In this document: piece after piece, positions 6,021 to 19,616 of the stretch
How the letters are laid out: each line of letters opens with the position of its first letter
Position numbering within the stretch: the first letter of the stretch is position 1
DNA from: a virus
Virus record (IMG/VR): IMGVR_UViG_3300029634_000134
Span: 2,567 to 34,566 of that record
Reading direction: 5' to 3' (one strand)
DNA: 32,000 bases
Notes under the pieces: model-generated
Database searches by the model: none
What the model saw: the letters and a program-made list of their open reading frames with translations, nothing else
What the model was told of the DNA's origin: nothing
Program-made: the position numbers and the translations under genes

Positions 6021-9000
6021 TTACGCGGGAACCAGTGACTTCCCGCCTCTCCGCCGCCCTTCGTCCACCAGCGGGTCATACACCACACTGGCAATCTGCT
6101 TTCCGTCCAGATTGATATTCAAGGTCACATTCTGGCCGCCTCCGCCCCGCTCCATCAGCGGAGCCAAAGCGTTCACCAGCCCGGAGACCAGATCAGCAGA
6201 AGTGTTTCCGCCGCCTGTGACGGGCAGGCTCCCCATGATCTCGTCGGCGCCGCGGCGCATCCGCCGTTTCACGTTCGCCATCTCCGACTCGAAGCCGACC
6301 ATGATCCCCTGGGCCGTGGGGACGCCCACCAGCTCGGCCATCTTCCGGCTCGGGGAGTGGATATCCAGGGCCCGCCGCATCTCGGCCACGATGGCGTCGG
6401 CAATGCTTCTCGCCGTGGCGATGGCCCTGCGCCCCTCGCTCTCCAGCCCGGAGCGCAGCCCCGCCATTGCGTCCCGGCCCGCCCGCTGGAACTTCCCGGC
6501 ACTGGCGGAAAAAGTGGCGCACACGGCCTCCACCGACTCCCCGGCGGCCCCCGTCAGTTGGGCCAGGGCGGCCTGAAATCCCCGGACCGTCTCGGTCATG
6601 ACCCCGGCCCCGGCGGCCTGGGTCCGCTCCGCCTGTCCGGCCACACCCTGGGCAAAGGCCCCCGCCGTCTCCTCTCCCGCCGTCTGGGCCTCTCCGGTTC
6701 CGGCCAGGGCGGAGGCAATGGTCTGCCCGACCTGGGCAAGCTGCTCCTCGGCCAGGGCGCCCAGCTCCACCGGCACCTCCACCGCAGGGATCTCCCGCTC
6801 GGCCTGTTCGGCGGCAAGCTGTCCCTTTTTGGCAAAGAGCTCAGCGTACTCGTCTAACTGCTTGTCGGAGAGCTGCAAAAGAGCGTGCAGCTCGTCCGCC
6901 GCCTTGGGCCCCATGTCCCGCAGCTCGTCCAGCAGCGGCCCGGTGATGCCCCGCCCGGCCAGGGCTTCCATGTCCGCCTGCCAGCCCTCAAAGGCCTTGA
7001 CTTGATCCCGCAGGTTCTTCAGCAGTTCCCGCCCGGACACGTCGTTTTTCTTCTCCACGCTGTCGAAAAGACCGGCGAAGCCCTCCAGGCTCTTGGCCCT
7101 GGACTGGACCGCCTTCTCGTACTCGTCGAAGGCCTTCTTCTGCTCGTCATAGATCTTCTGTTCCGCAGCCTGCTCTTCCTTCATCAGGTTTTGGCGGGCG
7201 GTGTACAGGTTCTTTTCCGCCTCGGCCTGCTCGTCGGCCAGCAGATTGTGGCGCTCCACCACCCGCTCCCAGGCCTCCACCTCCTCCTGGGCGGACAGCC
7301 GGTGATAAAACTTCTCGTTGTCGATCCATTTTTTCGAGTAGGTGTAGGCGTCCTTGGATGCCTTTGCGGAGGCGTCGGCGGCCTCCTTGGCCTCCTGCTT
7401 CCGGGCCTTGTAGAGGTTTTGGTCAATCTCTTTGAGCTCTTCGGCCCCCAGACCGCCCACCTCTTTGAGGGCTTCCCAGAAGTCGGCCTCCTCCCCTATG
7501 GTGAGCTGATCCAGGGCCTTCTTGTCCTTGACCCATCCGGAGGCGGCGTCATAGATGGCCTCCGACAGCTCTTCGGCGGTCTTGATGGCCTTCCCCTTCT
7601 TGTTCTCCATGCCCAGGGCAAAGCCCTCCACGGTGAACCCGCCCAGCTCGGCAAAGACGGTAGAGGGGGAATGGATTCCGAGGAAGTTTTTCACCCCGTC
7701 CACCACACCAGAGAAAAAGCCCTTCACCTGCTCCATGAGCCAGGCGCCCATGCCTTTGATACCCTCCCAGATGCCGGTGACCATGTTATTCCCGGCCTCT
7801 TTCAGGTCGTTCCACAGGTTTCCAATTCCCATCACCACCGTGGCCACGATCTCCCCGGCGGCCTGGCCCAGGTTGGAAAGCCCGCTTTTGATCCCCTCCA
7901 CCAGCTTGACAATCAGCTCCCCCGCCGCCTCCAGCAGCTTGGGGGCGTTGGTCACGATGGCCGAAACCAGCTTCCCCACAATCTCCGGCGCCTTCTCCAC
8001 CAGCCGGGGCAGGGCGGAAATCAGCCCGTCCGCCAGGGCAAAAACGAGGTCGATCCCGGCGTCCACAATCTGGTCGATGTCGCCCAGCAGTCCGTCCACA
8101 ATGGTGAGCACGGCGTCCACCGCCGCCGGGATCAGTGTGGGCAATGCGTTCGTGATGCCGCCCACCATCGCCAGCACCATCTGACGGGCCCCGTTCACGA
8201 CGCCGGGCAGGGCGCTCACCATGCCCTCCGTGACTTGCCCCAGGATGTTCCCGGCCTCATCGACAAGCCCCTGGAAGCCGCCCGCCTCGAACGCCTGGGT
8301 GAGCTGTCCAACGTACTGCGTTGCGGTCTGGGCCGCCTGTTTCAGCGGAGCGCCGATGCCCTCATAAACGGCAATTCCAAAGCCCTCGATGGAGGACTTC
8401 ATAATGGTAACAGCGCCCTTGAGGTTGTCTATCTGCACGTCGGCCATGTCCTGCATGGCGCCCCCGCTGTCGCTCACGGCGGCGGCCAGGGTGTCGAACT
8501 CCTCCCCACACCCGGCCAGCATGGCCTGGACGGACTTGAGGTCCACCTTATTGAACATTTCATTGAGGGCCGCCGTTTTCTCGCCCTCGGTCATTTGGGC
8601 CATGGAGGAGTCCAGGTCCTTGAACACCTCATTGAGGGGCCGCAGATTGCCCGAGGCGTCGTAAACCTCCAGCCCCAGGGCCTTCATCTGCTTTGCCGCC
8701 TTGTCGGTGGGGGCGGACAGGGACAGAATGATGTTTCTCAAAGCGGTGCCGCCCTCGGCCCCCTTGATGCCCCGGTTCGCCAGGACGCCCAGGGAGGTGT
8801 TGAGCTCCGTCACGCCCCCCGCCAGCCCCTTGGCCGTGCCGCCCACGGTAAGCGTGGCCTCGCCAAGCTGGGCCACGCTGGTGTTGGCCTTACTGGCCGT
8901 CCGGGCCATCTTGTCCCCGAACTCCGTCAGGCTTTCCTGGGACGCCTCGATCCCAAGCGCCGCCATGGCGTCGGTGGCTAGGTCGGAGGCGTAGGCCAAA

Positions 9001-9785
9001 TCCAGCCCGCCAGCCGCCGCCAGATTGAGGACAGCGGGAAGGGCGTCCGAGGCCTTTTCAGCGTCATATCCGGCCAGAGCCAGATAATTGAGGGCTTCCG
9101 CCGACTCCGTGGCGCTGAACTTCGTGGATGCCCCGGCGTCTTTGGCCGCCTGCTTCAGCGTTTCAAAGGCCTCGCTTCCGGCGGCGATCTCCTCCGGCGA
9201 CATTCCCATGGTGGCCGCCACCTGGGACATACCCTCCTCAAAGTCGGCACCGGCGCCCACAAACTCCTTCAGGGCCCGCCCCAGCTCCCTGGCCGCCGCC
9301 ACGACGGCCACCTGCATGGCGGTGATGCCCTGTTTGAACTTCTCCGTTTTGTCCCCGGTGGCCTGGGCCGTCCGCCCGAACTCGTCCAGCTTGTTCCCGG
9401 CCTCGTCGTACCCCCGCCGGACATTGGTCAGGTCCCGTTCGTTCTCCTCCAGGGCTTGCCCCAGCCGGTTCAGCTCCGTCTGAGCCCTGTTGACCTGCTG
9501 CTGCCACTTCTGGACAACCTCGCTGTTGTCGTCATATTTGCCCCGGGCGGCCTCCAGGCCCCTCTGCATCTCGGCCAGCTTCGTCTTCTGGGTGTCATAC
9601 TGCTTATTCAGCACTTCGCCCCTGGCGGTCAAGGCGGCCTCGCTCTTGTCCGTCTTGTCGAACGCAGACGCCACCATGCCCAGCTCGGTCCCCAGGGTCT
9701 TCATGGTGGTGTTGATGCCCTGGATGGCCCGCCGGAACTCGGCCTCCCCATCAATTCCAATTTTCGGTCCAATATCGTAGGACAT
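6021..9785 (-). CDS. Tail tape measure protein
   Basis: About 1254 aa, rich in Ala/Glu/Lys/Gly with a coiled-coil style. It carries two IHSPS motifs (GIHSPSTVFAELGG and DIHSPSRKMAELVG) typical of tape measure proteins. ATG 9785 is preceded by GGGAGGTG; the ORF track starts at GTG 9794. Confidence 0.9.
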   Translation of the reverse strand: MSYDIGPKIGIDGEAEFRRAIQGINTTMKTLGTELGMVASAFDKTDKSEAALTARGEVLNKQYDTQKTKLAEMQRGLEAARGKYDDNSEVVQKWQQQVNRAQTELNRLGQALEENERDLTNVRRGYDEAGNKLDEFGRTAQATGDKTEKFKQGITAMQVAVVAAARELGRALKEFVGAGADFEEGMSQVAATMGMSPEEIAAGSEAFETLKQAAKDAGASTKFSATESAEALNYLALAGYDAEKASDALPAVLNLAAAGGLDLAYASDLATDAMAALGIEASQESLTEFGDKMARTASKANTSVAQLGEATLTVGGTAKGLAGGVTELNTSLGVLANRGIKGAEGGTALRNIILSLSAPTDKAAKQMKALGLEVYDASGNLRPLNEVFKDLDSSMAQMTEGEKTAALNEMFNKVDLKSVQAMLAGCGEEFDTLAAAVSDSGGAMQDMADVQIDNLKGAVTIMKSSIEGFGIAVYEGIGAPLKQAAQTATQYVGQLTQAFEAGGFQGLVDEAGNILGQVTEGMVSALPGVVNGARQMVLAMVGGITNALPTLIPAAVDAVLTIVDGLLGDIDQIVDAGIDLVFALADGLISALPRLVEKAPEIVGKLVSAIVTNAPKLLEAAGELIVKLVEGIKSGLSNLGQAAGEIVATVVMGIGNLWNDLKEAGNNMVTGIWEGIKGMGAWLMEQVKGFFSGVVDGVKNFLGIHSPSTVFAELGGFTVEGFALGMENKKGKAIKTAEELSEAIYDAASGWVKDKKALDQLTIGEEADFWEALKEVGGLGAEELKEIDQNLYKARKQEAKEAADASAKASKDAYTYSKKWIDNEKFYHRLSAQEEVEAWERVVERHNLLADEQAEAEKNLYTARQNLMKEEQAAEQKIYDEQKKAFDEYEKAVQSRAKSLEGFAGLFDSVEKKNDVSGRELLKNLRDQVKAFEGWQADMEALAGRGITGPLLDELRDMGPKAADELHALLQLSDKQLDEYAELFAKKGQLAAEQAEREIPAVEVPVELGALAEEQLAQVGQTIASALAGTGEAQTAGEETAGAFAQGVAGQAERTQAAGAGVMTETVRGFQAALAQLTGAAGESVEAVCATFSASAGKFQRAGRDAMAGLRSGLESEGRRAIATARSIADAIVAEMRRALDIHSPSRKMAELVGVPTAQGIMVGFESEMANVKRRMRRGADEIMGSLPVTGGGNTSADLVSGLVNALAPLMERGGGGQNVTLNINLDGKQIASVVYDPLVDEGRRRGGKSLVPA

Positions 9786-9802
9786 ACCAGCCACCTCCCG
9801 GC

Positions 9803-9857: not shown

Positions 9858-9886
9858 GTGACATTTTTGTAAAATCATGGTATTAT
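9858..9886 (+). promoter_or_regulatory. Sigma70-type promoter with extended -10 for the 2-TM protein gene
   Basis: gTGACA (9858-9863), 17-nt spacer, TGg TATTAT (-10 at 9881-9886). Confidence 0.55.
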
Positions 9887-9896
9887 AAACAAAAAG

Positions 9897-10532
9897 ATGT
9901 TGAACCTTAAGGAGATGTTTGACTTGTCCGATGGAATTGTTCTATTCCTTTTTGTCTTGTTTTTCGTCATTATCTGTATCTATGTTTCTGCACTCGCAAT
10001 CGCCCTGGATTTAACACTTCAAACAAACCGGCTTTACAAGGCTTTTTCCGCGCTTTTTCTATCAACATTTGAAAAAGAGATTGATGATGCCCGTTTAAAC
10101 GATTTGACTATCCGCTCTAAAAATATATTCTCTTCCCTTTGTGGACCAGAAAAGAGTAACAATACTTTTCAAAGAAGGATCCGCAATTACCTCACTAGAC
10201 TATATGACAATCCACGCTCCGTAAAAGTGGCCTTTGACAAGCGAGATCGGGTGGCCGATCTTGTTATGGCAATGATTAACCGGATGGAAGCAACCACTCC
10301 CGAATACTCGGAGATCCCATCTAAGGCAGGCGCCATTTTTGTTCAACTGGACGAAGCCTTAACGTTAAATAACACCCTCGCCGCAAAGAGCCATTTAAAT
10401 CTGCTTTCCACTGAGGTAAAAGCCCTTTTTGAGGAAAATAGAAAGCAGCAGAAACAAACAAAGTTAGCCACCTATACTTCATTCGCCGGTATTGCGCTTA
10501 CCATTATATTTGGGATTATATCAATGAAATAG
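9897..10532 (+). CDS. Two-pass membrane protein of unknown family (about 202-211 aa)
   Basis: Visibly AT-rich ORF. It has an N-terminal hydrophobic helix (IVLFLFVLFFVIICIYVSALAIALDL), a helical soluble domain of about 150 aa, and a C-terminal helix (YTSFAGIALTIIFGIISMK). The start is ambiguous: ATG 9897 is almost leaderless relative to the promoter, while in-frame TTG 9924 lies 9 nt after AAGGAG. Confidence 0.7.
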   Translation: MLNLKEMFDLSDGIVLFLFVLFFVIICIYVSALAIALDLTLQTNRLYKAFSALFLSTFEKEIDDARLNDLTIRSKNIFSSLCGPEKSNNTFQRRIRNYLTRLYDNPRSVKVAFDKRDRVADLVMAMINRMEATTPEYSEIPSKAGAIFVQLDEALTLNNTLAAKSHLNLLSTEVKALFEENRKQQKQTKLATYTSFAGIALTIIFGIISMK

Positions 10533-10542
10533 CCCCTAAAAG

Positions 10543-10568
10543 CGCCGGCCTATCAGGTCGGCGTTTTT
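10543..10568 (+). terminator. Intrinsic terminator, possibly bidirectional
   Basis: CGCCGGCC-TATCA-GGTCGGCG stem-loop followed by TTTTT, 11 nt after the stop at 10532. On the minus strand the same stem is followed by CTTTTA. Confidence 0.65.
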
Positions 10569-10603
10569 GATGAAACAATTTGAAAGAAAATATGTGAAAA
10601 CGC

Positions 10604-10632
10604 TTGACAAATATACGTACGTATGTTATTAT
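10604..10632 (+). promoter_or_regulatory. Near-consensus sigma70 promoter for the small-peptide/RHH operon
   Basis: TTGACA (10604-10609), 17-nt spacer, TGt TATTAT (-10 at 10627-10632). Confidence 0.65.
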
Positions 10633-10655
10633 TATATCAGAAAGGAGGTCAAGCA

Positions 10656-10775
10656 TTGAGCAAGAAAAAGAAAAGCGGCAACAAGGAGCAGCCCGCCAGC
10701 TACATCACCCTTGTTACCGCCATCATCAACCTCGTGGTTTCTCTCATACTGCTGTATGAAAAGCTCACGAGTTGA
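10656..10775 (+). CDS. 39-aa membrane peptide (candidate type I toxin-like)
   Basis: TTG start 7 nt after AAAGGAGG. Translation is MSKKKKSGNKEQPASYITLVTAIINLVVSLILLYEKLTS: a Lys-rich N-terminus followed by one hydrophobic helix. Below the ORF-track cutoff. Confidence 0.5.
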   Translation: MSKKKKSGNKEQPASYITLVTAIINLVVSLILLYEKLTS

Positions 10776-10778
10776 GGC

Positions 10779-10798
10779 GAGGGGGAGCAATCCCCCTC
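10779..10798. promoter_or_regulatory. Stable 8-bp stem-loop between the two peptide ORFs
   Basis: GAGGGGGA-GCAA-TCCCCCTC is a perfect stem with a GNRA-type loop on the plus strand and no U-tract. It coincides with the predicted 5' end of the antisense transcript. Confidence 0.5.
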
Positions 10799-10805
10799 CC
10801 CTCAG

Positions 10806-10834
10806 ATGATAGCAAATAAGCCGCTCAATGTCAA
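10806..10834 (-). promoter_or_regulatory. Antisense promoter convergent on the 39-aa peptide gene
   Basis: Minus strand reads TTGACA (10834-10829), 17-nt spacer, TATCAT (10811-10806). The predicted start near 10799 is the first base of the 10798-10779 hairpin. Confidence 0.5.
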
Positions 10835-10839
10835 ACACT

Positions 10840-10938
10840 ATGGATACTTTGGTTTATGTGCTCCTTGGAATCAACATCGTTCTTTCCATCGTCGCCATCA
10901 TTCTGTCCGTCAAGGCCATCCGGAACGGGAGGAAATAA
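10840..10938 (+). CDS. 32-aa membrane peptide
   Basis: Translation is MDTLVYVLLGINIVLSIVAIILSVKAIRNGRK: one hydrophobic helix plus a basic tail. The stop lies 1 nt before the RHH gene ATG. No obvious SD, so confidence is low. Confidence 0.4.
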   Translation: MDTLVYVLLGINIVLSIVAIILSVKAIRNGRK

Positions 10939-10939
10939 T

Positions 10940-11266
10940 ATGCTGGAAGAGAGCAAGTATAAATCCCAAATGAAAAACCTGCGTAAGAACTATGTCCGCT
11001 TTCCCTTGGACCTGAAACCGGAAGTTCTGGACGGCTTCAAAGCTGCCTGTTCGGCCAACGGGACCACCCCCACTACGGAAATCAAAAAATTTATTGCCCG
11101 ATACTGCGCTAAATATGGCCGGGGCGTTCCCGGTCTGACGACGGACGTCGAAGTTGAACTTCCCGCCAACCTTGCCCGCTTCGCCACTGAACAAGGCATT
11201 GACTTAAATGACTTTTTGGTTGACTTATTGACTGAAAAGCTGGGTTCAGATGGAGAAAAAACATGA
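10940..11266 (+). CDS. Tandem ribbon-helix-helix (Arc/CopG-like) DNA-binding protein (108 aa)
   Basis: Internal ATG of track ORF 10856..11266, preceded by GGGAGG. Two strand-helix-helix units can be read: YVRFPLDLKPEVLDGFKAACSANGTTPTTEIKKFIARY and VEVELPANLARFATEQGIDLNDFLVDLLTEKL. Confidence 0.65.
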   Translation: MLEESKYKSQMKNLRKNYVRFPLDLKPEVLDGFKAACSANGTTPTTEIKKFIARYCAKYGRGVPGLTTDVEVELPANLARFATEQGIDLNDFLVDLLTEKLGSDGEKT

Positions 11267-11772
11267 CGTTCCACGGCATGAGCGGCACACGTCTCTACCG
11301 CATTTACAGCGGAATGAAACAGCGTTGCTACAACCCCCACGCTCCTCAATACTCCCGTTATGGTGGGCGTGGTATCACCGTCTGCCCTGCATGGCTTGGC
11401 CCCGAAGGGTTCCAGCACTTTTATAAATGGGCGATGGAACATGGTTACAAAGACCCGCTTACGATTGACCGAATCAACTCAAATCAGGGTTATGCGCCGG
11501 AAAATTGCCAATGGCTCACTTTGAGCGACAATTCCTCAAAGGCCCAGCGAGAAAAGAGCCTTCGCCGTTGGGACGGACACGGACCGCATGCGTTGCCAGA
11601 CATGAGCAAATGCTCTCTTTTCGTCCAGGGACTTTTGAAAAAAGGATGGCGGCCCGCTTTTGCGTCTGCCGACCAAGTCCTTCTTAAAAAGGGCCATCAA
11701 AAAATTACGGTTCCTATCAAAGACGAGCCAAAGGAAAAAATAAAGCAACTGCTGTCTCCCATCATCAAATAG
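11263..11772 (+). CDS. Phage-type DNA-binding protein of the YGGRGI...IDRI-N-x-Y-x-x-NCxW (degenerate HNH/AP2-like) family, with a C-terminal extension
   Basis: The N-terminus TRLYRIYSGMKQRCYNPHAPQYSRYGGRGITVCPAWL...LTIDRINSNQGYAPENCQWLT matches a widespread phage family often annotated as HNH endonuclease but lacking the first catalytic His. The ATG overlaps the stop of the RHH gene (ATGA at 11263-11266). Confidence 0.75.
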   Translation: MTFHGMSGTRLYRIYSGMKQRCYNPHAPQYSRYGGRGITVCPAWLGPEGFQHFYKWAMEHGYKDPLTIDRINSNQGYAPENCQWLTLSDNSSKAQREKSLRRWDGHGPHALPDMSKCSLFVQGLLKKGWRPAFASADQVLLKKGHQKITVPIKDEPKEKIKQLLSPIIK

Positions 11773-11804
11773 CCGGAGGCCCCCACGGGCCCCCGGCTTT
11801 TCTT
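11771..11804 (+). terminator. Intrinsic terminator ending the plus-strand island
   Basis: The stem GCCGGAGGCCC/GGGCCCCCGGC has 10 bp plus one A.C mismatch and a CCAC loop. It is followed by TTTTCTT and starts at the stop codon of 11263..11772. Confidence 0.7.
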
Positions 11805-11807
11805 GTC

Positions 11808-11915
11808 CTATGGGATATCCGGAAGCATTTCCTCGTCGTCCACCGCTCTGGCCTCCCTGGCCCCCTTGCTGATATTGTAGCAGGCAATGAGGTCCAACAG
11901 CTCCCCGTATGGCAT
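11808..11915 (-). CDS. 35-aa ORF in the -1 frame of the tail chaperone (gpT-like tail or independent small protein)
   Basis: Translation is MPYGELLDLIACYNISKGAREARAVDDEEMLPDIP. GGGAGGTG lies 6 nt upstream of ATG 11915. The same frame is open upstream back to the A7 slippery run at 12003-12009. Confidence 0.45.
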   Translation of the reverse strand: MPYGELLDLIACYNISKGAREARAVDDEEMLPDIP

Positions 11916-11947
11916 ACACCACACCTCCCGCTGAGAGAGACCTATCT

Positions 11948-12397
11948 TCAGTCCGAGGTAGAGGCACCACGCAAAGGTTCCTCCCCCTGCGTGGCCGCCC
12001 CGTTTTTTTCGCCGTCCTCCGGCTCAGTCTCCACGGTGCGAGTCATGCTGCGGTTCATCGTGGCGAACACTTTCTTCATCAGCCCATTTATGTCGATGCC
12101 ATCCATGAGAATGGAAATTTCCTCCTGGGTGGGAGCCGTGTCATTGGCCCCCTCCAAAAGGTTCCGCCTCGCAACCCCCTGATTCACCAGCAGGGCCAGC
12201 ATCCAAAACAGGTTTTCCATCAGATTCGCTTCGTCGTTCCCTGGAAAAAGCGTGTTCATTTTTTCCAGAGAGCCACACCGTCCCACCACGGCCTGGGTCG
12301 CCGCCAGAGAGAAAACCATGGGGTAATCCTTTCCCCCGATAGAGACGGAAGGGTAATCCCGGCCAGCCAGACAAATGGTATCCTTCACCCCATCCAT
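11948..12397 (-). CDS. Tail assembly chaperone (gpG-like)
   Basis: 149-aa acidic protein directly downstream of the major tail protein gene. A slippery heptamer lies near its 3' end. Confidence 0.7.
   Translation of the reverse strand: MDGVKDTICLAGRDYPSVSIGGKDYPMVFSLAATQAVVGRCGSLEKMNTLFPGNDEANLMENLFWMLALLVNQGVARRNLLEGANDTAPTQEEISILMDGIDINGLMKKVFATMNRSMTRTVETEPEDGEKNGAATQGEEPLRGASTSD
12002..12008 (-). promoter_or_regulatory. Candidate -1 programmed frameshift heptamer A_AAA_AAC
   Basis: In the chaperone frame the codons are GAA AAA AAC, giving X_XXY_YYZ. The -1 frame then runs stop-free for about 65 codons to the TAG at 11808-11810. Confidence 0.4.
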
Positions 12398-14689: not shown

Positions 14690-16069
14690 TTACTTTCCGG
14701 AGTTGGCGGGCGCCACAGGCTCGGTCTGGCCGGCGAAGTCCACACTGGTGGTCGGGGCCTTACCGGAGATGTTCAGTCCCACGAAGCCTTCGGGGATGGC
14801 AGGAACACCGTCATACCGGGCGGTCCCTTTGAAGATGGTCTGGTCCTCGACGAACCGGGCGTGCTCACTCTGGCCGATGGCCGCACCGGCCCGCTCGGCC
14901 AGCAGGTAGAGGTCGCCGTAACCGCCCACCACGTCGCCGTCGGGGATGAAGTCCAGCTCCACAATGTCGCCGCCCACAATAGGCATCGTCCCATTCTGGG
15001 CGGAGACAACGGCCCCGGCGGCGTTGAAGGTGACGGCCTCCGCCTGAAGCATGGTCTTGGTGGTCTCGCTCATAGCCCAGAACTTGACCCCCCGGCTGAA
15101 CTTGCCCTTGGCTTTGCCGGAGGCCAGCACCAGAGCCTTGAACAGATCCACACCGCTCTTGCCGCTGATGGTAACCAGGTTGCTGGTATGCAGGTCTTCC
15201 CAGGGCCGGGCGGTGGCGGAATAATCGGAGGGCTTGGCGGTCTGGGCCAGCCGGGTCATGACGCCCAGGGGCATCTTGACGCCCTTGCCGTACAGCACGG
15301 CCTTGTCCAGGGCGTAGCCGATGGCCTGCCCCAGAGCGGTGATGATCTCAGAGGCCAGGGCAATGTCGGAATCCTCCATCGTGGCGTTGCACACGGCGAT
15401 AAAGCCGCCCACCTTGTAGCCGTCCACCTCCACGTTGTTGAAGGTAAGGGACAGCTCATTCAGACTGGCGCACATCTCCGTCCAAACGCCCTCGGGGATG
15501 GTCCCCATGATGTTCTGGCGGGCCTTGCCGGGTACAGGCCTGACATTGACATACTTGTAGAGCTTGCTGTACCCCTGGACCTGCTCCCGAATCAGGCCCA
15601 GCATCACCTCGGGGATCAACAGCTCCGAGCCGTTGATGGCCCGCTTCTGTCCGGCCAGCTCCCGCACCCGCACGAGGAAGTCTTTCACATCCTCCCTCGC
15701 CAGGAAGGCGTCCCGCCGCTCCATGGTCATACCGAAAAACGCTCTCGTCTCCATCTGAACCTCTCCCTTTCTCTCCTGTCCGCCGGTGGGGGCGGGCTTC
15801 TTCCGCTCCAACGCCTCCACCTCGGTTTCGATTTCTTTGATCTCGCCCTCCAGGGCGGTGGCCGCCTTCTCGTTGGCGTCCTTATCCCGGTCATACTGCT
15901 CCACGGCCTCTTCCACGGCCTGCTTCTCCTCGTCGCTCCGGGCCTCGTCGATATCCTTTTCCAACTCGGCCTCCCGCCGCTGGAAGTCCTCGGCCTGCCG
16001 CCGCAGCTCTTCCAGCTCCGTGCGCTTCTCCTCCAGCTTCTTGCGAAGCATCAATACCTTCAGCGCCAT
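14690..16069 (-). CDS. Major capsid protein, HK97 family, with an N-terminal coiled-coil delta domain
   Basis: 459 aa. The N-terminus is rich in charged, coiled-coil-style sequence. It directly follows the prohead protease gene. Confidence 0.9.
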   Translation of the reverse strand: MALKVLMLRKKLEEKRTELEELRRQAEDFQRREAELEKDIDEARSDEEKQAVEEAVEQYDRDKDANEKAATALEGEIKEIETEVEALERKKPAPTGGQERKGEVQMETRAFFGMTMERRDAFLAREDVKDFLVRVRELAGQKRAINGSELLIPEVMLGLIREQVQGYSKLYKYVNVRPVPGKARQNIMGTIPEGVWTEMCASLNELSLTFNNVEVDGYKVGGFIAVCNATMEDSDIALASEIITALGQAIGYALDKAVLYGKGVKMPLGVMTRLAQTAKPSDYSATARPWEDLHTSNLVTISGKSGVDLFKALVLASGKAKGKFSRGVKFWAMSETTKTMLQAEAVTFNAAGAVVSAQNGTMPIVGGDIVELDFIPDGDVVGGYGDLYLLAERAGAAIGQSEHARFVEDQTIFKGTARYDGVPAIPEGFVGLNISGKAPTTSVDFAGQTEPVAPANSGK

Positions 16070-16651
16070 TTACTCACTCGCTCCCTTCTTCATCTTGTTG
16101 CGCATCTCTTCCCGCCACATCTCCAGGCGGCGGGTCCGCACCGCTTCGTAATCCCGCTTCCGGGCCGCCACCCCCGTCTCCTCGTAGGCCGGGAACGTGA
16201 CCACGCTCACCTCGTAGAGCCTGACCTTTTTGATGGTCCAGTGGACCGTCCCGTCCTCCTTGTAGTCGGTCTCCTCGTCCAGAATGTCAAACCCAAAGGA
16301 ACACTGGGACACGTCCCCCCGCTGGACCCTGGCGTACAGGTTCATGGCGTCGGTGTCGTCCTGGTTGAGCCGAATCCGGCCCCACAGCCCCCGGCTGTCC
16401 TCCCGGAGCTCCAGCGTTCCCGCCGCCGTCCGGCCCAGCACCAACCGGGTCTCATGGTCCACCAGGGCCCGCACGTCTGCGGACAGGGCATCTGAAAAGG
16501 CCCCCGGCGCCACGCTCTCCGTGGCCCCCGGCCACAGCTCGTAGTTACTGCCGAAAACCGAGAAATATCCCTCGATGTACTTTTCTCCCGTCTCCTCCCT
16601 GGTCTGGAACTCCGCCGGAAGGCTCCTCGTCTGCATCTGTTTCCTATCCAT
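16070..16651 (-). CDS. HK97-family prohead serine protease
   Basis: Contains the [11 protein letters not shown] motif and lies between the portal and capsid genes. ATG 16651 lies 8 nt after GGAGG. Confidence 0.85.
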
Positions 16652-17843
16652 CCGCTTCACCTCCGTTCAGCTTTTTTTGCTCCCCGATCATGCCTCGGGG
16701 GATGTAGTTCTCCAGGATCACCAGTTCGTCCAGCCCGTCCTTGGGGCTCAGGCCCAGCCAGTCCCGAACCTCGTTGCCCGTCATGATGCCCCGCACGAAC
16801 TGATCGTCCCCCACCTGGGCCAGCTCCTTGATATCGTAAGCGTGGAGGGCCCTGGCGTTGAACCGGAAATAGAGCTCGGGAGAAACCAGCAGCTTGCGGG
16901 TCAACTCTTGCTCGATCCCTCGGGCAATGGGCAGAATGGTGGCGTCAATGAAGCTGTTCCACTCATCCCGCTTGAACTCTCCCACGCCCACCACAAAGGG
17001 GGGCACATGGAAAATCCCGGCCACCGTCCGCTTGTCGATGGTAACGGAATCGTTGAGCGCCAGATCATTGAGCGTCAGCGGCTTCACCTGTTCCACGTCG
17101 ATGAGGTCGGCGGGCAGCACCCAGGGCGTCCCGGCCTCCTCCGTCCTCATGTACTTTTCCAGCAGGGCGTCCCGGCCCCGCTCCGACGCCATCTCTTCAG
17201 CGCTGGAGTTGACCCGCACGATAATAGAGGGCTTCCACTTGGATTCCATGAAGCCCTTCTTGGTCTGCGCCGCCTGCCGGAGGTTGTGGACCACATCCCG
17301 CAGGGCCACCCTGGCCCCCCGGCCCATCCATGGCCGCTCCGGGTCTGGGTTATAGACGAAATGGAGCACTTCATCCGGGCGGTATACCGCCCCGCCGCAG
17401 CGGATCAGATAGCCGTCCCCCTCCGCCTGGAACGTGAGAGAGGAAGGCTTGAGCGGGGCCAGATTGTCGATGCGCCCGCCCGAAATTTCGGGCAGGACCA
17501 CGGCGTTTCCGACCCCCTCCAGAAGCATGGTCCTCACCAGATTTGTCATAAAGGTCATCCGGGTCATGTTCCGGCTGGGCTCAATGTCGATTTTCCGACT
17601 CAGCCCGTTTTTGATTCTCACATCTCCCCGGTCCGTGTTCTGCATGAGGTGGATCGTCATAGACCCGATGAGCCCGGCGATACGGTCCACCGCCATCAAC
17701 ACCTCCGGGTTTTCCGACAGACGGGTGAATCCAGGCACACACAGCCCGTCATACCCTTCCTGAGACAGCAGGAAGGCCACCGCCCCGTCCTGGGGCTTGT
17801 CCCTGGCCGGGTGGCCCCTCAGCTTTTTCTTACTCAATGCCAT
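16644..17843 (-). CDS. Portal protein (HK97 family)
   Basis: 399 aa immediately after the large terminase gene. AAGGGGG SD. Confidence 0.9.
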
Positions 17844-17849
17844 ACCCCC

Positions 17850-19616
17850 TTATAGCCACTGTTTTGCTTTTTCGTTGAGCTCCATAGCCTCCAGCTTCCG
17901 CACACAGGCGAAAACCGAGGCGTCAAAAACGTCGATACGCTGCTCCGGCTCAACTTTTTCATATTGAATCATGTCGTCGGTCTTCTCGATGGCCCGGACA
18001 TTCTGGACGCAATACTCGAAGGGGTCGGCATGGAGGTAATAAAGCTCACCGTTCTTGGCCTTGACCTCGATATGCCGGAACCCCTCCGACTTCTTGTAGT
18101 AAAGCTGCGGCTGATCCACCACGTTGAATCCCGCCGTTTTCATACCCACGTAATACTCCCGGCAGAATTTCCGGTCATGGCCCACCTGTTTGATCTTGAA
18201 GCCCTTACGCCGCATCTCCACAAACCAGTTGACCACCTCCGCATGGTTCACCGTGGGGCTGTTGCACATGTCCAGCCATCCGTCGTCCTTCCAGCCGAAG
18301 AGGGGGATGCCGTCCTCGTCGGCCTTCTGGTGGGCGGCCACCACCGGGAACCAGGCGTGAGGGATGATAATGTCCACGTCCACCTTCTTTCCATCCGCCC
18401 GCTCCCAGCCGTACAGGGTCCCATAGAGCACGGCGGCGGTCAAATCGTGGAGTTTGGACAGGTCGGCGCCGCCATACCACGCCACCGGCAGGGCGGCCAG
18501 ATCTTCCAGGCTCCAGTCGTACAGCTCGTCGGAGCGCTGGAACTCCCCCAGGTCGAAATAGGCCCGCAGGGCGGAGGTGTAAACGTTCAGGCTCTTCGCC
18601 AGAAAGTCTTTTCTCTGCTGGGGGTCGTTCTGGGCCTCCAGGGCGTCGTTCATAATGTCGTCCGGGCGGATGGTCACACCGTAAGCCGGGTTTGCCATTT
18701 CATGGATGCGGGGATTCGTGAAATCCACATCCCCGTTCTCCCCCTCTTCCGCCTTGCAGATGAAAATGAAGAGCTGCTCGTTCTTCACCAGACCGTCCAG
18801 CACCTTCTTGCAGTATTGAAGCCGCCGGTAGCAAAAGCTGGACATGTTGTCGCCCGCCGTGGTGATCCCGATCATCAGCTTATTGGTATAAGCCTTCATG
18901 GCCTCCTTGATGATGTTGTACTGCTTGGGGCTTTTGAAGGCGTGGATCTCGTCGGCAATCGCCACGTTGCAGTTCAAGGAATCCTGAGCGTCCGGGTTGG
19001 CCGCCAAGGCCTGGATGAAGAGCGAACCCCCGTCCAGTTCCCCGCTGATGGAGTGTTCCTGATTGTTGTCGATCACCCGGAAGTTGTCCTTCTCCCCCAT
19101 CTCCCCCAGATTGAAGTTGATGAAGTCAAAGCTCTCCAAGCTCTGCTTCAGGGCGGCGGCCACGATATAAACCTTACTGCCGCTCTTCCGGTTGAGCACC
19201 GCCAGGGCCCAGGCCAGGGCGGCGGAGAAGGAGGTCTTGACGTTCTTCCGGGGGATATAGATAAAGGCCTCCTTGAAGCGGCGGACCTTCCGGTCTGTCC
19301 CCGCCTCATAGAAGCCCAAGAGGTTATAGACGATGAACTTGTGAAAGGGCAGCAGCAGAAACGGCTTGCCCCGCATGGGGGTTCCGTCCAGCGCTTCCCC
19401 CTGTTGATGGACAAAGGTCTGCTCAATGAGCCGGATAACAAACTCGGCCTCTCGGGTGTCGAACTCAAACGCCGGGTCCTCCAGGTCCCGCAAAAACCGC
19501 TCACACGCCTGCTTCAGCTCCGGACAGGCAATTTTCCGCCCCTCCACGATCCCGCTGACATAATCCATGACCTCCCGCCGGTTTGGCGAGGGGGCGCCGC
19601 CCCTTTTACGGCCCAC
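17850..19616 (-). CDS. terL: Terminase large subunit
   Basis: 588 aa with an ATPase-like N-terminal half. It follows the small terminase gene with an 11-nt overlap. GTG start lies 9 nt after GGAGG. Confidence 0.9.

Follow-up and report, generated by a model that had tools for sequence, protein, structure and literature searches.

Toxin-antitoxin (TA) systems of type I, which are RNA-controlled, have been described chiefly in enterobacteria, Bacillus, staphylococci, enterococci and Clostridioides difficile. In the Ibs/Sib pairs, the Sib RNA (about 110-150 nt) is encoded opposite nearly the whole of the tiny ibs open reading frame (ORF), and in hok mRNA a long-range 5'-3' fold-back covers the translation start of the toxin. 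A ribbon-helix-helix (RHH) autorepressor and a countertranscript are united in one operon in CopG/RNA II of pMV158 and in Arc/sar of P22 immI. The locus described here resembles each of these arrangements in part. It is a cassette with a core of about 335 bp that extends over about 1.2 kb in a 32,000-nt stretch of viral DNA (IMG/VR record IMGVR_UViG_3300029634_000134; the whole stretch is called the window below), which is a phage or prophage of a high-GC Firmicute. A promoter, P1, precedes the genes for a 39-amino-acid (aa) peptide (pep1), a 32-aa peptide (pep2) and an RHH protein, and a convergent promoter, Pas, faces pep1 from the other strand. Judged from its sequence, the cassette is on balance probably an RNA-controlled (type I-like) TA or addiction module to which a protein autorepressor has been added. 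The best reading is that the cassette family is undescribed and resembles type I TA systems; no paper was found that describes one for Oscillospiraceae, a family that is dominant in the human gut and hard to culture.

Two groups of systems from Gram-positive prophages are among the closest that have been described. The first is yonT/yoyJ/SR6, a type I TA system with two toxins from the Bacillus subtilis SPbeta prophage (PMC5848175). Like this system, the cassette is prophage-borne and places two small toxin-like ORFs on one mRNA that starts at the promoter of the first gene; an antisense small RNA (sRNA) of about 100-140 nt is encoded on the other strand (stable in the case of SR6, predicted here), and degradation of the duplex by RNase III is expected. 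The overlap of SR6 takes in the yonT 3' end and the yoyJ 5' end, whereas the RNA predicted for the cassette covers almost all of pep1 and misses pep2. An overlap of both toxin genes of the SR6 type is absent here, as the predicted RNA start at 10799 lies 41 nt upstream of the pep2 start at 10840 and the RNA runs away from it. There is no sequence similarity between the two systems, the peptides have 39 and 32 aa compared to 58 aa for yonT, and the yonT/SR6 system is without an operon-encoded autorepressor such as the one predicted for the cassette. The second group comprises CD0977.1/RCd11 and related type I pairs of C. difficile prophages (PMC7699646). Shared features are the location in Clostridia prophages, peptides of 34-53 aa with one hydrophobic helix and a Lys-rich end, convergent promoters, a consensus Shine-Dalgarno sequence and a proposed role in the maintenance of mobile elements. 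In the C. difficile toxins the hydrophobic part is N-terminal and the Lys-rich part C-terminal, an order that is found again in pep2 and is reversed in pep1. In addition, the C. difficile antitoxins overlap the toxin transcript at the 3' ends, and these systems contain neither a protein regulator nor a second peptide. Profile searches yielded no sequence match between the cassette peptides and the C. difficile toxins.

The cassette shares the antisense overlap of a whole ORF with Ibs/Sib and the fold-back over a start codon with hok. Both of these systems differ from it in belonging to another phylum and in showing no homology (the Rfam model SIB_RNA gives an E-value of 5.9, far below threshold); in the cassette, the antisense terminator is built from codons of the target and the mRNA continues into further genes. 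As in CopG/RNA II and Arc/sar, the RHH operator lies within a promoter and the countertranscript promoter lies inside the operon. Those circuits control a replication initiator or an antirepressor and have the RHH gene at the front, whereas here the RHH gene is the last of pep1-pep2-RHH, two membrane peptides are encoded and there is no rep or ant gene. Any likeness to type II TA systems is confined to the logic of an autoregulatory operon, and there is no sign that the RHH protein contacts the peptides. A model reading of the nucleotide sequence that preceded this analysis (the sequence-only reading) had compared the locus to prophage type I TA systems such as txpA/RatA and bsrG/SR4. The hydrophobic peptide faced by a conserved antisense promoter agrees with that architecture; the overlap limited to the 3' end and the simple layout do not, given an operon with its own regulator and operator.

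The predicted antisense RNA

About 100 related loci in phages and prophages of Oscillospiraceae, designated by L numbers where they have to be told apart, were compared with the cassette. Diverged relatives (pep1 identity 55-85%) were gathered by a protein search, with pep1 as a 50-codon extended frame as the query, and by a DNA pattern and a peptide pattern. A distant branch was gathered by a second peptide pattern that used a four-member alignment, the 16-peptide alignment being too diverse for locus search.

The convergent antisense promoter proposed in the sequence-only reading is present, and the suggested check for its conservation in relatives bears it out. About 25 distinct versions of Pas show conservation of both hexamers (-35 and -10) and of the extended TG, and 8-9 nt in the middle of the spacer are free to vary; the retention of the hexamers next to a variable spacer is the conservation pattern of a working promoter. 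The -35 hexamer TTGACA is almost invariant (TTGACT in L017, TTGACG in L087 and L089), the spacer always has 17 nt, the -10 hexamer reads TATCAT, TATCCT, TACTAT or TACCAT, and the extended TG occurs in nearly all versions, being absent in L016 and L105. Pas was also considered as the driver of the downstream minus-strand phage genes, which is unlikely because a conserved terminator follows directly after it.

With the RNA start assumed about 7 nt past the Pas -10 hexamer, the predicted RNA shows perfect complementarity to pep1 over a stretch that runs from about codon 4 to shortly past the stop codon, and it folds into three hairpins (SL1, SL2 and SL3) followed by a U tract (Table 1). Its minimum free energy is -66.6 kcal/mol (z -5.9), and the three-hairpin shape is predicted in nearly all of 33 versions as well as in L105, a distant relative with only 48% peptide identity. 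In an alignment of 21 sequences, 90.5% of the cells are paired, compared to 45-67% when the partners are slid by 1-3 columns, and 11 pairs of the antisense RNA change on both sides. Values as high as those observed do not occur in any of 500 shuffles; as the sequences are related, this shuffle control overstates the significance, and the slid-partner control and L105 represent the sounder evidence. The pairing also points to the minus strand as the one that folds, with 71 G.U cells there against 20 when the pairs are read on the plus strand.

The 5'-terminal hairpin SL1 corresponds to the perfect 8-bp GC stem that the sequence-only reading had noticed after the pep1 stop codon, at the 5' end of the antisense RNA, and its presence is confirmed. 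The hairpin extends to 13 bp with one C/C mismatch, its loop on the plus strand reads GCAA, GAAA or GTAA in the relatives, 97% of its cells are paired and three pairs are changed on both sides. The stem at 10779-10798 was rejected as a plus-strand intrinsic terminator for pep1, since it is not followed by a T run in any of the versions.

SL3 is the predicted intrinsic terminator of the RNA and lies within codons 2-22 of pep1, with the SGNK codons and the LVTA codons of the peptide as its two arms. It is more stable on the minus strand (-30.8 kcal/mol) than on the plus strand (-15.9 kcal/mol), and 100% of its cells are paired on the minus strand versus 92.5% on the plus strand. The arm CTTGTTACCGC, which represents the Leu-Val-Thr-Ala codons, is invariant at synonymous sites in all 40 of 40 distinct sequences, and the neighbouring codons vary; some of these 40 loci were found by the DNA pattern, which fixes bases of CTTGTTACCGC, but the loci found by protein search or peptide pattern, the latter being numerous among the 40, are equally invariant. 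In L105 the arms are GCGGCAATCAGG and CCTGATTACCGC, compared to GCGGCAACAAGG and CCTTGTTACCGC in the window. This amounts to full compensation at two pairs (T-A to G-C, G-C to A-T), which arose through synonymous and non-synonymous substitutions, with the U tract kept, and L105 is regarded as the decisive case for the predicted SL3 stem. When RNAalifold was applied to a plain MAFFT alignment, SL1 and SL3 were recovered and SL2 was not, owing to a one-base register shift in one subgroup. In view of these register errors, SL2 was set by hand for the pair counting, and its pair counts are underestimates.

The presence of its own terminator inside pep1 predicts an RNA of about 135 nt that covers nearly the entire ORF. 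This revises the earlier expectation of an antisense RNA of about 250 nt that overlaps pep1 at the 3' end and runs to a bidirectional terminator at 10543-10568. The hairpin at these positions is strongly asymmetric (-22.3 kcal/mol on the plus strand, -12.3 kcal/mol on the minus strand) and belongs to the upstream gene for a 211-aa protein, not to the cassette; as it is weak on the minus strand and outside the conserved module, it was rejected as the end of the antisense RNA. A search of the window against Rfam at gathering thresholds yields only a tRNA, and at permissive thresholds the best E-values in the region range from 0.15 to 9.5, all far below the family thresholds.

The two-peptide operon and its predicted controls

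The 39-codon ORF with a strong Shine-Dalgarno sequence, described in the sequence-only reading, is found in place, and both the Shine-Dalgarno sequence and the frame are conserved. The product has a Lys-rich N-terminus followed by one hydrophobic helix of 18 residues, and most versions begin with TTG, a few with ATG. The frame is kept in every complete version (33 distinct) and the ratio of non-synonymous to synonymous divergence (pN/pS) is 0.48, so that the check proposed for homologous loci points to purifying selection on the peptide. The second mini peptide, noted beyond the antisense promoter, is likewise conserved and under purifying selection: pep2 has a pN/pS of 0.45 (pS 0.69) and its frame is kept in every complete version (29 distinct). 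It is without a Shine-Dalgarno sequence. The pep2-type ORFs of the relatives have 25-42 aa, start 5-6 nt past the Pas -35 hexamer and encode an N-terminal hydrophobic helix followed by a basic tail. Synonymous sites have diverged less in pep1 (0.42) than in pep2 (0.69), which is the difference to be expected from a second functional RNA that lies over pep1 and spares pep2. The sequence-only reading had named homologs with broken ORFs but conserved DNA as a refutation; L038 has both ORFs broken but is not such a case, its hairpin being deleted as well. In the assembly collection, 170 indexed blocks contain the exact 39-aa pep1, and a profile search for the pep1 family gives 175 clusters at 50% identity, nearly all of 36-43 aa. 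Neither pep1, pep2 nor their variants have a significant match in Pfam, NCBIfam, PADLOC or PHROGs, and matches of the peptides to DUF5316, DUF4190 and FixS were discarded as far below the cut-offs.

P1 is predicted to be an extended -10 sigma-70-type promoter. The sequence-only reading had recorded a consensus promoter ahead of the peptide gene, which is indeed conserved in the related loci as TTGAC(A/T)-17-TGnTA(T/A)AAT. P1 and Pas are the only two matches to TTGACA-N14-TGN-TATNAT in the window, and 100 dinucleotide-preserving shuffles contain none. The 17-nt spacer of P1 always holds a palindrome (12-18 bp), the predicted operator, whose sequence depends on the third gene of the cassette. 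Here, ATACGTACGTAT accompanies the RHH gene of the window, ATAGTGCACTAT an RHH protein of the 'QKQLRVWL' type (at least 15 loci), CATACTGCAAGCAGTATG an RHH protein of the 'VISVRVPKDL' type (Pfam RHH_1, 29.1 bits) and ACACG-N4-CGTGT or CACGATATCGTG an HTH_17 protein (30.2 bits). Two independent relatives of the window RHH protein are preceded by the operators ATATACG-CA-CGTATAT (L087) and ATACACGTACGTGTAT (a second cassette in L026), and in L105 the palindrome is TCACAAAATTTTGTGA and genes of XRE-type regulators lie beside it. Across the RHH subfamilies and HTH_17, the predicted operator and the regulator thus change together, with L003, probably a chimeric assembly, as the exception. The palindrome ATACGTACGTAT is single-copy in the window at up to 2 mismatches and each related locus also has one operator copy, which suggests that the regulator is dedicated to its own promoter.

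Among the cassettes, the third gene encodes one of three RHH subfamilies, an HTH_17 protein or a protein of one unknown fold. The 108-aa protein of the window matches the RHH family of the cassettes with an hhalign probability of 93%; the profile of this family matches ParG at 4.7e-7 and also AvtR and VapB26, and the L019-type regulator scores 29.1 bits against RHH_1 (cut-off 20.5 bits). The 108-aa RHH protein is predicted to act as the autorepressor of P1. Its gene directly follows pep2, in whose last codons the Shine-Dalgarno sequence of the regulator gene sits, with stop and start codons that overlap or are adjacent.

A further control may act within the mRNA. In the predicted fold, a 5' arm over the pep1 start pairs with a 3' element about 165 nt downstream of the start codon (Table 1). 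The duplex has 9-13 bp in 23 of 24 distinct versions and a mean energy of -14.7 kcal/mol, compared to -5.3 +/- 2.3 kcal/mol for shuffled partners. Where one arm differs, the other follows: the versions with an ATG start (L024 and L105) carry the compensatory GCTCATTG, in L026 AGT pairs with a compensatory ACTCAATG, and in L087 ACGTTGAGC pairs with GCTTGACGT, again by compensation. This pairing explains a block of high information by the Pas -35 hexamer that the promoter itself does not need. Such a long-range duplex may restrain the translation of pep1; a restraint on the toxin by mRNA structure is common in type I systems, though not universal.

Toxin-antitoxin module or other phage cargo

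Taken as a TA module, the cassette would function as follows. P1 would drive an operon of pep1, pep2 and the small DNA-binding protein, with an HNH gene as the fourth gene in the window. The regulator would bind the palindrome and keep P1 low, and the weak TTG start together with the long-range pairing would keep the translation of pep1 low. The antisense RNA would pair with the pep1 mRNA, interfere with initiation at the downstream border of the ribosome-binding window so as to block it, and expose a long duplex to RNase III. Upon loss of the element or of its transcription, under stress or at superinfection, RNA and repressor would decay, one or both membrane peptides would be made and the cell would be harmed. 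Such a release could stabilise the prophage or abort an infection. In line with this proposal, pep1 is a small (<~60 aa) hydrophobic-peptide ORF with its own ribosome-binding site, and the candidate RNA antitoxin gene has, at the sequence level, its own promoter and end and is complementary to the peptide mRNA, as in type I systems. TA and addiction modules are typically mobile among genomic contexts, and so is the cassette.

Several points weigh against a TA function. The antisense transcript, the RNA ends and the translation of either peptide are predictions. Neither peptide can be placed by sequence in any known type I toxin family, distant family members have an amphipathic helix that is not plainly membrane-spanning, the polarity of pep1 (basic N-terminus, hydrophobic C-terminus) is opposite to that of most Gram-positive type I toxins, and small membrane peptides of prophages are not necessarily toxic. 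Part of the amino-acid conservation of SGNK and LVTA may reflect the RNA stem and not the function of the peptide. The predicted RNA matches no Rfam family and ends about 10 nt after the pep1 start codon, leaving the Shine-Dalgarno sequence uncovered, and the SL3 variant of L087 favours the plus strand. To our knowledge, a protein autorepressor within the operon is not part of the described type I systems.

A less probable but serious alternative is that the cassette represents a lysogenic-conversion moron, whose non-toxic small membrane proteins might, for example, serve superinfection exclusion or the modulation of a host membrane protein and whose controls would do no more than keep their amount low and constant. 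The cassette brings its own promoter and, in the window, its own terminator, and it is usually oriented opposite to the flanking phage genes and found in differing slots of the phage genomes, which is the classic layout of a moron. However, it travels with selfish elements, and a ParE/HicB pair is found in a slot that it also uses. Negative autoregulation through a dedicated repressor gives steady expression, as would suit this explanation, but an operator in the promoter, a sequesterable TTG start and a full-length antisense RNA are three stacked layers of control, typical of products that do harm when made in excess. The amphipathic helices of the distant members, the lack of resemblance of either peptide to a known toxin and a weak, non-significant SieB match of the neighbouring 211-aa membrane protein would also suit a moron; the persistence of the peptide/antisense pair when everything else is exchanged speaks against one.

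It is improbable that the cassette is a regulatory switch, in which the DNA-binding protein would be the payload and the short ORFs would be leader or coupling ORFs of a circuit like CopG/RNA II or Arc/sar. This explanation draws on the logic of an RHH autorepressor plus countertranscript known from pMV158 and P22 immI, on the absence of a Shine-Dalgarno sequence from pep2, whose last codons supply that of the regulator, and on the position of the cassette in many phages, where early and late genes meet and the terminase genes lie downstream. A fixed position in phage genomes is, however, not observed, both peptides are under purifying selection at the amino-acid level, and the operator occurs only in P1, with no other copy in the window (up to 2 mismatches) or in the related loci. 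The exchangeable regulator next to constant peptides and RNA, the single operator and the retention of pep1 and the RNA in L105, where pep2 and the operon regulator are missing, disfavour such a switch.

A chance co-occurrence of hexamers, hairpin and short ORFs in an AT-rich intergenic stretch is hardly credible: the 43% GC of the region raises the odds of promoter-like hexamers, and a broad promoter scan of the window finds 8 promoter-like sites versus 2.7 expected, but the strict pattern has matches in the window and none in the shuffles, dozens of diverged loci keep every element in its place and show compensatory changes, and the peptide family forms 175 clusters.

Within the preferred reading as an addiction module, it is a tentative suggestion that the cassette founds a new hybrid class in phages of gut Oscillospiraceae, a 335-bp unit that stacks three controls on two membrane peptides. 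Such a class would combine an exchangeable autorepressor, with its operator inside the promoter spacer, with a hok-like fold-back over a weak TTG start and with an sRNA terminator encoded by the SGNK, LVTA and poly-Lys codons, so that peptide and RNA constrain each other. The long-range helix might also bring the pep1 Shine-Dalgarno sequence beside the pep2 AUG and switch translation between the peptides. If the hybrid reading holds, the near-identical cassettes in unrelated phages would act as recombination hot spots, and the cassette RNA could cross-silence copies on incoming phages. The cassette is widespread yet unannotated, being absent from Pfam, Rfam, PHROGs and PADLOC. If functional, it would offer a compact model for an antisense terminator embedded in the coding sequence it regulates, for the combination of RNA control with protein autoregulation on a toxic product, and for the movement of modules between phage genomes with HNH and IS30 elements, creating breakpoints of recombination and assembly. 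A possible use as a counter-selection or containment tool for gut Clostridia can also be envisaged, for which type I systems of C. difficile already serve (PMC7699646).

Genomic setting and variants of the cassette

Table 1. Positions of the cassette elements and of other features in the window
Feature	Positions	Strand	Description
P1	10604-10632	+	TTGACA 10604-10609, 17-nt spacer, TG 10624-10625, TATTAT 10627-10632; predicted start near 10639
Predicted operator	10613-10624		perfect 12-bp palindrome ATACGTACGTAT in the P1 spacer; candidate target of the downstream RHH protein
Shine-Dalgarno sequence	10640-10648	+	GAAAGGAGG; 7 nt before the TTG start; nearly invariant in aligned modules
5' arm of long-range pairing	10653-10661	+	GCAUUGAGC; covers the pep1 TTG start
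pep1	10656-10775	+	39 aa, MSKKKKSGNKEQPASYITLVTAIINLVVSLILLYEKLTS; start TTG 10656-10658, stop 10773-10775
GC hairpin	10773-10804		inner perfect 8-bp stem 10779-10798; GCAA (GNRA) loop on the plus strand; forms SL1
3' arm of long-range pairing	10823-10831	+	GCUCAAUGU; in the Pas spacer, overlaps the -35 hexamer; outside the predicted antisense RNA
Pas	10834-10806	-	TTGACA 10834-10829, 17-nt spacer, TG 10814-10813, TATCAT 10811-10806; predicted start near 10799
Predicted antisense sRNA	10799-10665	-	about 135 nt; three hairpins and U tract
SL1	10798-10779	-	5' end of the antisense RNA
SL2	10775-10726	-	middle hairpin
SL3	10721-10674	-	predicted intrinsic terminator; 10721-10708 pairs with 10687-10674
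U tract	10673-10661	-	antisense of the pep1 Lys codons AAGAAAAAGAAAA
pep2	10840-10938	+	32 aa, MDTLVYVLLGINIVLSIVAIILSVKAIRNGRK; N-terminal hydrophobic helix, basic tail
RHH regulator	10940-11266	+	108 aa, N-terminal ribbon-helix-helix; phrog_582 (Arc-like repressor), E 5.5e-5
HNH endonuclease gene	11263-11772	+	169 aa; phrog_3377, E 2e-39
Terminator-like hairpin and T-rich tail	11787-11809	+	likely end of the P1 operon
Upstream moron promoter	9858-9886	+	GTGACA-17-TGnTATTAT
211-aa protein	9897-10532	+	hydrophobic N- and C-termini; weak, non-significant SieB and SpoIIIAB matches
Upstream moron terminator	~10537-10569	+	strong
Tape measure gene	6021-9794	-	structural gene
Tail protein gene	11948-12397	-	structural gene
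Capsid gene	14690-16069	-	structural gene
Portal gene	16644-17843	-	structural gene
Large terminase gene	17850-19616	-	structural gene

In the window, the cassette is part of a plus-strand island (9897-11772) of 43% GC that lies between the tail and tape-measure genes in surroundings of about 60% GC and that encodes, in this order, the 211-aa protein, pep1, pep2, the 108-aa RHH protein and the 169-aa HNH protein. An identical cassette occurs in at least four genomic contexts. These are the position between tape-measure and tail genes as in the window, that slot again but with ParE/HicB genes upstream of the cassette and an HTH_17 gene downstream of it, a position between the small terminase gene and early genes, and a position after an endolysin gene. 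DNA alignment shows near-identity from the P1 -35 hexamer through the pep2 stop codon and unrelated flanks. The cassette adjoins HNH or IS30-like genes. BLAST found no match to the island among cultured phage records and no match to the cassette among plasmids. The hosts named in the genome records are Oscillospiraceae, namely Oscillibacter, Pseudoflavonifractor, Dysosmobacter and relatives. Cassette-bearing strains include Pseudoflavonifractor phocaeensis 1362 (L035), whose pep1 is identical to that of the window, and P. capillosus An386a (L036). The sole cassette-bearing record labelled Bacteroidaceae is L039, and this label probably results from a binning error in a metagenome-assembled genome (MAG) and not from a real host jump.

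Several contigs (the group of L003, L005, L006 and L007) break within the cassette block, and near-identical cassettes are present in different phages of the same samples. In L003, the left flank of one context is joined to the right flank of another, and this contig is probably an assembly chimera or a recombinant. The contig breaks at the cassette and the mixed flanks of L003 point to a hot spot of recombination, to chimeric metagenome assemblies that originate at the cassette, or to both.

The 211-aa gene upstream of the cassette, with its own promoter and terminator, constitutes a separate moron (9858-10569). In the sister phage L002, the slot held by this gene in the window is occupied by the ParE/HicB pair, which suggests that the tape-measure/tail junction is a hot spot for accessory or defence-like cargo. 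On the other side of the cassette, the start of the HNH gene overlaps the stop of the RHH gene (ATGA). This fourth operon gene is restricted to the present phage lineage and absent from most other cassettes. A minus-strand ORF of 144 codons (11536-11970) overlaps the HNH gene and is probably not a gene, as in the sister locus L001 merely a 35-aa ORF is called there. In about 15 loci (L048, 2014-3063, and the L074 and L087 types), an ORF of 349 aa directly follows the RHH gene. Its N-terminus is of the HTH_38 type (42 bits in Pfam for the homologue in L087), and from its sequence it is judged to be a candidate transposase of the IS30 family of insertion sequences (IS). The cassette may therefore travel as the cargo of IS elements as well as with HNH genes.

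Some relatives depart from the standard arrangement. In L105, the pep1/antisense unit is flanked by two genes of the XRE helix-turn-helix type (338-565, and 882-1270 on the minus strand) whose products have near-identical C-termini (...LARIADYLDCSVDYLLGRTD...), and a gene for a 38-aa membrane peptide converges on the antisense promoter. The P1 promoter and leader hairpin are repeated at 1304-1359. This locus is interpreted as a different wiring of the same parts. In L026, a second, divergent cassette lies in tandem on the minus strand, about 600-1250 nt downstream of the first. Its promoter P1' contains the operator ATACACGTACGTGTAT, and its other parts are a peptide rich in Lys (MGKKKKKPKSKLETVESIVTILAGISSIGFAIYSILKG), a hairpin of the GNRA type, a 56-aa membrane protein with two helices and an RHH protein close to that of the window. 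In L038 (about 1600-2100, from an Oscillospiraceae MAG), P1 and the pep1 start are replaced, the pep1 C-terminus and the hairpin are deleted and pep2 is truncated, with the antisense -35 and -10 hexamers still recognisable; by its sequence, L038 is a decayed cassette remnant. Finally, a tRNA-Val gene (GAC) is located at 31690-31766 on the minus strand of the window and adjoins a stretch of lower GC content (28-30 kb), and it may mark the attachment site and the lysogeny module of the prophage.

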